From Escherichia coli (GTDB lineage Bacteria > Pseudomonadota > Gammaproteobacteria > Enterobacterales > Enterobacteriaceae): DNA of 64,000 nucleotides. Below, in pieces: positions 1,925 through 4,900 of the stretch. Every line of letters starts with the position of its first letter. The first letter of the stretch is position 1. The DNA lies in assembly GCF_016026235.1 (NCBI RefSeq), contig NZ_CP065613.1; one strand, written 5' to 3'. Under the pieces are notes generated by a model. It had not been told where the DNA came from. It saw only the letters and a list, made by a program, of their open reading frames with translations, and made no database searches. The position numbers were made by a program, and so were the translations under genes.

Positions 1925-4900
1925 TTACTCAACAGGTTGCGGACGCGCAGGAGCGGCAGAGGCATGATGCGTTGCCGTATGACCACCTGCGGCACCTTTA
2001 CCTTCGAAGGCAAAAGTAGGGCGCTGCCAGTCACTGTGACGCGGTGCCTCCGGAACATATTCCGGTGCCGGAGCGCGCGTCATTGGCGCGGTAGCGTGGT
2101 TATGCTCAACGGTGATCTCTGGTTCAACCGCGGCTACCGTTTCAACTTCTGCTGCGACTTCAGCGACGACTGGCGCGGCAGGTTGAGCAACAACTTCAGG
2201 TTCAGCAACCACAACCTCAGCAGTTTCGGCAACTTCTTCAATATCTGCCGTCTCTTCCTGCGGTTCAACCACCGGTTCTGCGTGTTCTGCGACTTCCTGG
2301 GCTACGGCAACATCAGACTCGGTAATCACCTGCGGCTGTTCAGTTACCGCGGCGGCAATCACTTCAGGATGCGTCGTTTCAACCACTTCCGGTTGCGGTT
2401 CGGCAACCGGTACGGGGGCTTCTACGACTTCAGCCATTTCTTCAACAACTGGCGCGCTAACAACAGGTTCGACAGCGGCGGCGACAGGGACCTCAGTCAC
2501 CATCGGCTGCACTTGTACTTCTTCCTGTTCGCGCTGCTCTTCAACTTGTACATCTTGCGGACGTACAATTGGATAGCGGATCCAGACTTTGCCAGAGGCC
2601 AGTTCCGGAGACGCGCACGCTACGGTCAACGGCATTGGCGACTGGGTTGGATAACGCTCGTCACGATAGCGACGACGACGCTGACCACTCACGCGCAGGT
2701 GACGAGGCGAGCGGCGAGAACGACGCGGCATGCCACCGTTGTCACGGTTATCAGCATTGTTCTCTTCTTGCTGTTCTGGTGCGGTTTGCGCTACGACTGG
2801 CAGCGGGACTTTCACCAGTTCTGTGCGTGGAGCTGGAGCTTCCTGAACAATTGGTTCGGCAGCGGCAGTTTCTTCAACCACCGGTGCGACTACCGCTTCT
2901 TCGGCTACGCTTTGCTCGTAACGCACTTTCTGATTGAGCTGACGCTGTTTACGACGCGGCTGAACCGGACGTACACGTTCTTCCTGTTCGGTTTCCTGAA
3001 CAGATTGCTCTTCAACATTCAGCGCCTTCGCTTCTTGTTGCGCCTGACGTTTATCATCGTTACGGCGGCGGCTACGTTCACGACGCGGCGCTTGCTGCTC
3101 GTCGGTGGTACGTGCTTTTTCCGTTACCTCAGCTTGCTGACGGCTCTCACGCGTCTCGGCAGTCTGCTGCTGTGCCTGGCGACGATTACGACGGTTTTCT
3201 TCGCGATTATCGCTGCCTTCAGTACGTTCGCTACGGGTGTCGCGGCGCTCATTACGGTCACGGCGGTTGTTCTGACGAGGCTTGCGACGATCCTGTTGAC
3301 GTTCCGGTTTCGCTTCTGCTTTCGGTGCTGGTTGCTCGGTCGGTTTGGTTTCTTCACTACCGCTGAACAGCGCTTTCAGTGCGCCGAAGAAGCGGCTCAA
3401 CAGCCCAGGTTGTGCAGGAGTTGCTGGTGTTGCCGGTGCAGCTTTCGGTGCTGGGGCTACAACAGGCGCGGCAGGTTCAGCTGGCGTTGGCGCTGGCGGC
3501 ACATCCGGCATGGCAAAGGTTGCCAGCGCAGGTTGTTCCGGACGCTTACGTTCAGCGAACTCTTCTTCAGACGGCAGCGCCATCGCTTCTTCATGCAGCT
3601 TCGGCAGCATGTAGCTTAAGGTTGGGGTTTCTTCCCCTTTACGCACGCGCAGCACGTGGTAGTGCGGGGTTTCCATCTGATCGTTTGGCACAATTACACA
3701 GCGCACACCGTCCTGACGAGTTTCAATGGCATTTACCGCAGAACGTTTTTCATTCAGCAGGTAAGAAGCGATTGGCACAGGAACAATGGCGTGAACTTCC
3801 TGGGTGTTCTCTTTCAGCGCTTCTTCTTCGATCAGACGCAGAATAGAGAGCGACAGCGATTCGTTGTCACGCACGGTGCCAGTACCAGAACAACGCGGAC
3901 AAACGTGATGACTGGATTCACCCAGTGATGGGCTCAGGCGCTGACGGGACATTTCCAGCAGGCCAAAGCGAGAAATATGGCTGATTTGAATACGCGCACG
4001 GTCCTGACGCACCGCTTCACGCAGACGGTTTTCTACCGCACGCTGGTGGCGTACAGGCGTCATGTCGATGAAGTCGATAACAATCAGGCCGCCGAGGTCA
4101 CGCAGGCGCAGCTGACGAGCAATCTCATCGGCAGCTTCCAGGTTGGTGTTAAACGCAGTTTCTTCGATATCGCCGCCACGGGTCGCGCGTGCGGAGTTGA
4201 TGTCGATGGCTGTTAACGCTTCGGTGCTGTCGATAACAATGGAACCACCGGATGGCAGACGGACTTCACGCTGGAAGGCGGACTCGATCTGCGACTCGAT
4301 CTGGTAGTGGCTGAACAGCGGGATCTCGCCGGTGTACAGTTTGATTTTGCTGCTGAAATCCGGGCGACCTAATGCAGCGATATGCTGACGTGCCAGTTCG
4401 AGCACTTTCGGGTTATCGATAAGGATTTCGCCGATGTCCTGACGTAAGTAATCGCGGAATGCGCGAACGATTACGTTGCTCTCCTGATGAATCAGGAACG
4501 GGGCCGGGCGGCTTTCAGCGGCTTTTTTGATGGCTTCCCAGTGTTTCAGACGGAAGCTTAAATCCCATTGCAGCGCCTCAGCAGATTTGCCGACGCCAGC
4601 GGTGCGCACGATAAGCCCCATGCCTTCCGGCAGTTCAAGGCTTGCCAGTGCTTCTTTTAATTCGGTACGGTCGTCGCCTTCGATACGGCGAGAAATGCCA
4701 CCCGCGCGCGGGTTGTTCGGCATCAGAACCAGATAGCTACCCGCCAGACTGATAAAGGTGGTTAATGCCGCGCCTTTGTTGCCGCGCTCTTCTTTATCGA
4801 TCTGAACAATGACTTCCTGACCTTCACGCAACACATCTTTAATGTTGGGACGACCATGAGCACTGTAGTTAGCAGGGAAATATTCGCGGGCAATTTCTTT

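Follow-up and report, generated by a model that had tools for sequence, protein, structure and literature searches.

Antisense open reading frames in previously described systems

Long open reading frames (ORFs) located antisense to a gene in frame -1 are known to result from the codons that the sense gene uses (Mir et al. 2012, PMC3454372). ORFs of this type had earlier been reported by Merino 1994 and Silke 1997 (both after PMC3454372). In the same line, the ORFs antisense to dnaK, which had been entered in Pfam as PF10712, were analysed by Moshensky & Alexeevski 2019 (bioRxiv 10.1101/724807). Translation has been described for pop, opposite ompA (PMC7103648), and for olg1/olg2 in P. aeruginosa (PMC8850804), with purifying selection reported for olg1/olg2, as far as the available text of these two papers goes. 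As regards the sense gene considered here, the non-catalytic region of RNase E in the gamma-Proteobacteria displays an AEPV-rich and an RNQ-rich bias and carries microdomains (Ait-Bara, Carpousis & Quentin 2015, PMC4435900); an expansion of the scaffold domain by slippage, as well as deletion between direct repeats, was also proposed in that study.

The 560-aa ORF found antisense to the E. coli rne gene resembles the known frame -1 'shadow' ORFs in its codon-aligned frame, in a length that is set by the scarcity of TTA, CTA and TCA, in the lack of purifying selection, and in occasional mis-calls. It differs from them in that this scarcity mainly reflects an amino-acid bias, namely that of a disordered Leu/Ser-poor domain, and is due neither to a high genomic GC content nor to the kind of strong codon bias that goes with high expression. 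With pop and olg1/olg2, as presented in the available text of the corresponding papers, it has in common that a long ORF lies entirely within, and antisense to, an annotated gene; unlike for these, selection and conservation of the rne antisense frame were both tested here and neither was found. An ORF of this kind is already known, and the observation is real but ordinary. It matters mostly for annotation quality, as a worked example of a very long antisense ORF in a mid-GC genome.

Geometry of the rne locus

Within the window, i.e. the whole stretch of 64,000 nucleotides of E. coli DNA that was analysed, rne is the only real gene at its position (Table 1). In a Pfam search, RNase E matches S1 (PF00575), RNase_E_G (PF10150) and RNase_E_G_Thio (PF20833) with scores above the cut-offs, and PNPase_C (PF12111) over residues 1022-1058. 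An earlier note on this DNA had described the strand opposite the 3' half of rne as open for 1683 bp and 560 aa, which the ORF listing matches exactly, the 1683 bp including the stop; counted from stop to stop, the opening begins at 1922 and spans 565 codons. The ORF is read in the antisense frame whose codons align with those of rne: sense codon position 3 faces antisense position 1, and antisense stops here arise solely opposite sense TTA, CTA and TCA codons. Ten such codons are present in rne, all of them within codons 5-498 and none in codons 499-1061. This antisense run is the longest of its kind in the 64-kb window, the second, opposite ptsG, reaching 374 codons.

Table 1. Coordinates of the features discussed in the text (positions refer to the window)
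Feature	Position	Strand	Basis or remark
rne, ribonuclease E, 1061 aa	1925..5110	-	ORF listing; Pfam matches; RefSeq at identical locus
560-aa antisense ORF, TTG start, judged non-coding	1937..3619	+	ORF listing, frame relation
TTA (Leu) at rne codon 498, tenth and last TTA/CTA/TCA codon of the gene	3617..3619	-	complement TAA ends the antisense ORF
Non-catalytic scaffold domain, RNase E residues 530-1061, low complexity, Leu/Ser-poor	1928..3523	-	composition, entropy; limits from PMC4435900
MTS microdomain	3365..3418	-	residue range from PMC4435900; 18-residue sequence present
AR1, Arg-rich RNA-binding segment, residues 604-644	3179..3301	-	range from PMC4435900
HBS microdomain	2918..2956	-	range from PMC4435900
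AR2, Arg-rich segment, residues 796-814	2669..2725	-	range from PMC4435900
EBS microdomain	2561..2611	-	range from PMC4435900
PBS, PNPase-binding site, residues 1021-1061	1928..2050	-	PF12111 match; PMC4435900
13-nt direct repeat ACCGGTGGTTGAA, first copy (encodes PVVE)	2873..2885	-	left end of the GN4738 609-nt deletion
ACCGGTGGTTGAA, second copy, 609 nt from the first	2264..2276	-	right end of the GN4738 deletion
12 nt AGTCGTCGCTGA, AGTCG repeats on the flanks	2160..2171	-	within the peptide quoted by the earlier note
Span delimited by two copies of CAGCCG, 171 nt from each other	2333..2509	-	
Terminator-like hairpin of rne	1882..1905	-	on the + strand, shortly before the antisense ORF
Terminator-like hairpin of flgL, with T-run	1770..1798	+	consensus scan only

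Origin of the open frame

In this frame, each antisense codon is the reverse complement of a single sense codon, and a stop needs TTA, CTA or TCA on the sense strand. The last 563 codons of rne, which in essence correspond to the intrinsically disordered degradosome scaffold, encode mostly Glu, Ala, Pro, Val, Arg and Gln, and these six residues make up 70% of the C-terminal half of RNase E. Leu and Ser together account for 16.6% of codons 1-498 but for 6.4% of codons 499-1061 (Leu from 10.0% in the N-terminal to 2.7% in the C-terminal half, Ser from 6.6% to 3.7%), so that the latter contain 15 Leu and 21 Ser codons, none of which is TTA, CTA or TCA. With few Leu and Ser codons and none of these three, the opposite strand stays open from past the rne stop codon to codon 498.

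The expected length of such a run was evaluated with a null model in which the protein was kept fixed and synonymous codons were resampled, the statistic being the longest antisense open run. With the codon usage of the window, the median longest run is 237 codons and P(>=563) = 0.005; with the codon usage of rne itself, the median is 336 codons and P(>=563) = 0.08. The run length lies in the upper tail, yet is mostly expected from the amino-acid and codon content. Most of it comes from composition, and the total absence of the three codons represents a modest extra, due to chance or to a mild codon preference. Strong codon bias, to which the earlier note had attributed the opening, accounts for the smaller effect: TTA, CTA or TCA is used by 0 of the 36 Leu/Ser codons in codons 499-1061, while in codons 1-498 the figure is 10 of 83 (Fisher P = 0.03), whereas the larger factor is amino-acid composition read in a codon-aligned antisense frame.

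The same counts could reflect an active avoidance of TTA, CTA and TCA in the scaffold half, related to translation efficiency or mRNA stability, in which case the rne mRNA would owe its openness to selection and not to composition and chance. Under the codon usage of the window, about five such codons would be expected in this region and the probability of finding none is 0.004. Nevertheless, TTA is used eight times in the more conserved catalytic half, so that gene-wide avoidance is absent, and for Leu alone the difference between the N- and C-terminal halves is not significant (P = 0.10). Besides, the corresponding domain of close relatives accommodates 2-6 of these codons, and three of 13 E. 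coli strains have gained one there, once synonymously (TTG>TTA), all of which makes selection on rne codon usage an improbable explanation.

Compositional shadowing, the preferred reading, was further considered across species. Among 75 of them, run length follows the GC content of rne (Spearman 0.89); in Pseudomonas, several rne genes leave the antisense frame open from end to end, for as many as 1099 codons. In the 21 species whose rne GC content is like that of E. coli, the runs measure 77-389 codons in 20 and 888 codons in one, which places the E. coli run near the top among species of similar rne GC content. Like the P of 0.005 obtained with the codon usage of the window, this counts against the compositional reading, and some stop avoidance is conceivable.

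Coding potential, conservation and selection

At this stage, it has to be considered whether the antisense ORF, in whole or in part, could be a real overlapping gene that is transcribed, translated and under selection, like pop or olg1/olg2. Such a gene could explain an ORF longer than predicted by synonymous-codon resampling (P 0.005-0.08, as above), and an SD-like AGGAG (1949-1953) stands 10 nt 5' of an in-frame ATG at 1964, from which translation would be possible, given an antisense transcript. In addition, translation of some long antisense ORFs has been argued, in the available text of PMC8850804 and bioRxiv 10.1101/2020.11.18.388249. The codon usage of the frame does not point in this direction: the log-likelihood per codon is -0.06 for the antisense frame and +0.44 for rne, while for the real genes of the window it amounts to 0.34 +/- 0.12, with a minimum of 0.09, and for the frames antisense to them to -0.17 +/- 0.18. 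The antisense ORF is thereby below the minimum for real genes and within the range of non-coding antisense frames. By contrast with this score, which answers the frame comparison proposed in the earlier note correctly, the GC3 proposed along with it (0.79 in antisense versus 0.46 in sense) is misleading and points the wrong way, because the codons for Glu, Ala, Val, Pro, Arg and Gln start with G or C; it was therefore discarded as a coding test in favour of the likelihood score, and the rne example illustrates that GC3 is the wrong test in a case like this one.

In composition, the protein that the frame would encode is implausible (R 15%, F 13%, L 12%, C 4.3%, W 3.2% and K 0.4%), and a Pfam search with it matched no family. 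No sigma-70-like promoter for an antisense transcript was detected in 1600-3800 by a consensus scan, which is a weak negative, and the flgL hairpin would presumably curb read-through transcription towards the antisense ORF. An Rfam search of 1-7000 returned a single match, the element already known from the rne 5' UTR, which lies outside the antisense ORF. Moreover, neither rne nor b1084, Z1722 or ECs1462 appears in the main text and 18 supplementary files of an E. coli antisense-gene survey (bioRxiv 10.1101/2020.11.18.388249), and the literature search on transcription or translation antisense to rne in E. coli returned only an antisense knock-down that had been engineered and an asRNA from a cyanobacterium, both of them irrelevant here.

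Comparison of E. coli strains also speaks against an overlapping gene. Pairwise dN/dS values over codons 499-1061 span 0.10-0.20 for the sense and 0.30-1.33 for the antisense reading, the lowest antisense value (0.30, versus O157:H7) being derived from only 22 substitutions. In 13 strains, polymorphic sites fall on sense codon positions 1, 2 and 3 in a 34/17/85 distribution. Codons that vary number 125, of which 77 differ synonymously when read in sense and 31 when read in antisense; in the latter reading, the other 94 replace the residue, in many cases radically (R/W, C/R, H/Y). Neither dN/dS nor the variable-codon counts reveal purifying selection on an antisense translation. Furthermore, three of the 13 strains carry a premature antisense stop, each created by a single substitution, namely A554S (GCA>TCA), P543S (CCA>TCA) and the synonymous change at L571 (TTG>TTA). 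As the last of these occurs in a natural isolate, a fitness cost of antisense stops that are synonymous in rne is unlikely.

Beyond the species, an open frame across the C-terminal region is absent from the nearest relatives checked. E. albertii has five stop-making codons after codon 510, its longest run across the gene being 242 codons, and the corresponding numbers of stop-making codons are 3 in Citrobacter, 2-6 in Enterobacter, 11 in Klebsiella and 10-12 in Yersinia. The absence of TTA, CTA and TCA from the scaffold half is specific to E. coli, and an ORF of full length is likewise confined to the E. coli lineage. With these results on selection, conservation and composition, a functional overlapping gene appears highly improbable. 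The same low credence is given to a variant in which the E. coli-specific loss of TTA, CTA and TCA opened a young, lineage-restricted frame translated at low level, for instance from ATG 1964 after AGGAG, as a proto-gene whose selection would not be detectable yet.

The 560-aa ORF is consequently regarded as a non-coding 'shadow' of rne, with a probability of about 0.93, and probably no protein is produced from it. Frame logic, codon counts and null models, on the one hand, and the absence of conservation and of purifying selection, on the other hand, were established in this analysis, and all tests run agree with the view of the earlier note that the ORF is spurious and a product of the composition of the scaffold domain.

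Annotation of the antisense frame

In RefSeq, rne alone is annotated at this locus in all the matches listed, of 5425 matching genomes. A search of 5.8 billion protein clusters retrieved four clusters that are calls of the antisense frame (three from E. coli and one from another genus), none of them full length, together with one chimera. Three mis-calls could be traced, and they come from assemblies in which rne is broken by frameshifts or by a 100-N gap. The over-call trap of which the earlier note had warned is thus real but rarely sprung, and, in these three cases, only where frameshifts or scaffold gaps had damaged rne. As for the chimera, which folds back on itself, it entered NCBI and UniRef as 'ribonuclease E, partial'. 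A real inversion was considered for the fold-back contig and rejected: the inverted copy runs 64 nt beyond the inverted repeat, to rne nt 1652, and, as rne nt 1652-1728 is thereby duplicated in both orientations, a simple inversion does not fit.

Composition of the scaffold domain and in-frame deletions in natural strains

The RNase E region described in PMC4435900 is that of the same protein, with the same AEPV-rich and Arg-rich segments as observed here, and the six E. coli microdomains (MTS, AR1, HBS, AR2, EBS and PBS) are all found at the published residue numbers. Shannon entropy in 40-aa windows goes down to 2.4-3.3 bits in the C-terminal half, compared to 3.5-3.9 bits in the catalytic half. 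True tandem repeats were rejected as a description of this region: Tandem Repeats Finder reported three tiny arrays only in the 3' region of rne (12 nt x2, 9 nt x2.1 and 6 nt x3.2), and the dispersed direct-repeat families, of 13-38 nt, are degenerate, most copies being 60-87% identical to the reference copy. Of the 'low-complexity repeats' of the earlier note, whose quoted peptide corresponds to RNase E residues 965-998 (2117-2218 in the window), low complexity and compositional bias are hence retained, whereas true repetition is not.

The expectation of the same note that this part of rne would vary between strains by in-frame indels, to be sought by aligning rne, was borne out by three deletions at short direct repeats. 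Length variants and antisense stops were surveyed in an evenly spread sample of 5426 genomes, combined with junction-specific queries, and the in-frame deletions recovered in E. coli strains between short direct repeats of rne comprise 4, 57 and 203 codons. These three within-species deletions fit the proposal made in PMC4435900, with the difference that the latter compares species whereas the present deletions are polymorphisms within E. coli. They constitute a small but usable observation for RNase E biology, illustrating repeat-mediated deletion inside one species. One of the three removes AR2 together with the enolase-binding site. In strain MS20677, one repeat-to-repeat unit (171 nt, 57 codons) has been lost between the CAGCCG copies, and AGTCGTCGCTGA has been lost from at least 108 E. 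coli genomes, SMS-3-5 and ST648 among them.

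The Antisense Reading Frame Opposite rne

The rne gene lies on the minus strand, between flgK-flgL and rluC on the plus strand. Along the query, the region has 100% identity to strain FDAARGOS_943, in which rne is the only gene annotated by RefSeq over this stretch. The 560-aa antisense ORF described in the earlier note was recovered at the same position in the ORF listing, and from stop to stop its frame is open from 1922, over 565 codons. The peptide quoted in that note corresponds to RNase E residues 965-998.

Table. Coordinates of the features discussed
Feature	Position	Strand	Remarks
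flgL terminator-like hairpin	1770-1798	+	just upstream of antisense ORF
rne terminator-like hairpin	1905-1882	-	just upstream of antisense ORF
rne	1925-5110	-	1061 aa; Pfam S1, RNase_E_G, RNase_E_G_Thio, PNPase_C
Antisense ORF	1937-3619	+	560 aa; TTG start
SD-like AGGAG	1949-1953	+	10 nt 5' of in-frame ATG at 1964; second in-frame ATG at 1967
12-nt deletion	2160-2171		AGTCG-flanked
GN4738 deletion	2277-2885		609 nt = 203 codons, about residues 743-945
MS20677 deletion	2333-2509		171 nt = 57 codons lost within this span; E/V/A-rich part of scaffold domain
rne codon 498 (TTA)	3617-3619	-	complement of antisense ORF stop
rne 5' UTR autoregulatory element	5135-5471	-	Rfam RF00040, 260 bits; known element, upstream of rne
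477-aa gene	18612-20045	+	taken as ptsG from reading its translation
374-aa antisense ORF	18918-20042	-	opposite the 477-aa gene

Coding Tests on the Antisense Frame

All coding tests run came out against the antisense ORF, thereby supporting the view that it is probably non-coding. As regards codon usage, a comparison suggested in the earlier note, the log-likelihood per codon reaches +0.44 in the rne frame and -0.06 in the antisense frame, while the real genes of the window score 0.34 ± 0.12 (minimum 0.09) and their codon-aligned antisense frames -0.17 ± 0.18. The GC3 comparison, also suggested there, points the wrong way (0.79 for antisense vs 0.46 for sense) and is misleading for this ORF because the abundant codons of the scaffold domain begin with G or C. 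The implied protein (R 15%, F 13%, L 12%, C 4.3%, W 3.2%, E 1.1%, K 0.4%) matched no family in a Pfam search.

With 13 E. coli strains aligned by codon, polymorphic sites are distributed over sense positions 1, 2 and 3 as 34, 17 and 85, and 77 of the 125 variable codons are synonymous for RNase E, against 31 for the antisense frame. Premature antisense stops occur in 3 of these strains, namely HUSEC2011 (A554S, GCA>TCA), PK-F-10122 (P543S, CCA>TCA) and a mussel isolate (Leu571, TTG>TTA, synonymous in rne). Over codons 499-1061, dN/dS (Nei-Gojobori) amounts to 0.10-0.20 for the sense and 0.30-1.33 for the antisense frame, the comparison with E. albertii giving 0.097 and 0.98, respectively. A search for sigma-70-like promoters in 1600-3800 was negative. 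The AGGAG motif and the ATG at 1964 might count slightly for translation; P0002, a 391-aa mis-called protein cluster, begins at the equivalent ATG in its own assembly. The literature searched contains no report that the strand opposite rne is translated in E. coli, and rne is absent from the E. coli antisense-gene survey. Codon usage, polymorphism, dN/dS and lack of conservation all bear out the earlier claim that the ORF is spurious.

Descriptions of long frame -1 ORFs lying opposite genuine genes date back to the 1990s, and the codon content of the sense gene is considered largely responsible for them (PMC3454372). A large survey reported that they are generally without negative selection, and the dnaK-antisense 'glutamate dehydrogenase' family is cited as a mis-annotation (bioRxiv 10.1101/724807). 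The rne antisense ORF is of the same kind and the phenomenon is already known, the only particular feature of the rne case being its cause, the amino-acid bias of a disordered domain in a mid-GC genome. The observation itself is confirmed, and the analysis bears out its earlier interpretation, subject to some refinements.

Why the Antisense Frame Stays Open

The ORF occupies the codon-aligned frame, sense position 3 lying opposite antisense position 1. Every antisense codon is thus the reverse complement of a single sense codon, and an antisense TAA, TAG or TGA can arise only opposite a sense TTA, CTA or TCA. Ten such stop-making codons are present in rne (codons 5, 70, 116, 151, 184, 222, 247, 299, 395 and 498) and none in codons 499-1061. 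Leu accounts for 10.0% of codons 1-498 (50 codons, 9 of them TTA/CTA) and 2.7% of codons 499-1061 (15 codons, no TTA/CTA), and Ser for 6.6% (33 codons, one TCA) and 3.7% (21 codons, no TCA). In the C-terminal half, 70% of residues are E, A, P, V, R or Q, in agreement with the AEPV-rich and RNQ-rich, Leu-depleted segments described for the disordered non-catalytic scaffold of RNase E (PMC4435900).

When synonymous codons were redrawn with the RNase E protein sequence held constant, the usage of the other window genes gave a median longest open run of 237 (P(run >= 563) = 0.005), with about 5 stop-making codons expected in the C-terminal half (P(none) = 0.004). With rne's own usage, these values became 336 (0.08) and about 2.5 (0.07). 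In codon choice, the N-terminal half differs only marginally from the C-terminal one (Fisher P = 0.10 for Leu only, 0.03 for Leu and Ser). Taken together, these data indicate that amino-acid composition explains most of the ORF length, the remaining ~2-fold of the run being luck or mild codon preference. Codon bias, which had been put forward as the cause, does contribute, but the resampling makes it the smaller contributor. The runner-up codon-aligned antisense run in the window, 374 codons, is opposite the presumed ptsG.

Across 75 complete rne genes, from a scan returning 80 loci, the longest antisense run correlates with gene GC content (Spearman 0.89), and a full-length open antisense frame is found in several Pseudomonas and betaproteobacterial rne genes, up to 1099 codons. 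At the high-GC loci L052, L056, L059, L062 and L093 (Pseudomonas species and a betaproteobacterial MAG), the whole rne (1040-1099 codons) is devoid of TTA, CTA and TCA, so that no stop interrupts the antisense frame from one end of the gene to the other; these shadow ORFs are much larger than that of E. coli. After codon 510, stop-making codons number 5 in E. albertii (longest whole-gene run, 242 codons), 3 in Citrobacter, 2-6 in Enterobacter, 11 in Klebsiella and 10-12 in Yersinia. With the C-terminal region interrupted in the closest relatives, the full-length open frame belongs to the E. coli lineage, whose count of zero falls in the low tail of a distribution that has its centre near 2-6.

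Gene-Caller Over-Calls

Searched against ~5.8 billion protein clusters, the 560-aa sequence gave five matches, none of them full-length. The source of P0002 (NCBI) is assembly GCA_025847755.1, where frameshifts split rne into at least 7 pieces. For P0001 (416 aa, 268 member sequences, ENA) it is a metagenome scaffold interrupted by a 100-N gap within the rne scaffold region, and for P0005 (407 aa, 37% identity) a scaffold of another genus, with an RNase E 72% identical and a 100-N gap inside rne; P0003 has 343 aa and 23 member sequences (ENA). Finally, P0004 (760 aa, 'ribonuclease E, partial' in NCBI and UniRef) fuses RNase E residues 1-573 to the antisense frame. Its contig (LVRK01000076.1 of GCA_001621075.1, locus 5001-7282, reported in 4 samples) turns back on itself at an inverted repeat of 13 nt, in which CCGCTTCTTCGGC (rne nt ~1716) is complementary to nt 2206-2218; from there it runs back to rne nt 1652 and ends. 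L003 and L004, metagenome scaffolds that stem from ENA projects of one kind, have their 100-N gaps (4842-4941 and 4815-4914, respectively) at almost the same point of the rne scaffold-coding region, and the sequences flanking that of L004 overlap by ~17 codons.

Assemblers appear to break in the scaffold-coding region, the antisense frame then being called in place of rne. Among 5425 matching genomes, every RefSeq annotation inspected carries only rne. The over-call trap announced in the earlier note is therefore real, but in the three traced cases (P0001, P0002 and P0005) it is sprung only where rne is damaged by frameshifts or a 100-N gap.

In-Frame Deletions in the Scaffold Domain

Regarding the low-complexity repeats ascribed to the 3' half of rne, short direct repeats are frequent in the DNA but true tandem repeats are almost lacking. 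The predicted in-frame indel variation between strains does exist, in the form of 609-, 171- and 12-nt deletions. In the urine isolate GN4738 (NZ_CM177114.1), the deletion occurred exactly between two 13-nt copies of ACCGGTGGTTGAA (2873-2885 and 2264-2276), removing AR2 and the enolase-binding site, yet its annotation still gives rne as an intact RNase E of 858 aa. Its junction is contiguous in 1 of 5426 genomes, GN4738 only; known from the assembly, the deletion may be an assembly artefact. The deletion of the CSF isolate MS20677 (NZ_CP082053.1) lies between two CAGCCG copies. The FlgL protein accession is identical in these two isolates, which may therefore be related, though their deletions differ. 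The 12-nt deletion, within the peptide of residues 965-998, is matched at >=99% identity by at least 108 genomes, including SMS-3-5 and an ST648 strain. The region is full-length in 38 of 40 evenly sampled genomes, so that length variants represent a small minority. These deletions match the slippage and direct-repeat deletion proposed for the RNase E scaffold domain across species (PMC4435900), and are compatible with the non-essential nature of this domain (PMC12594526).
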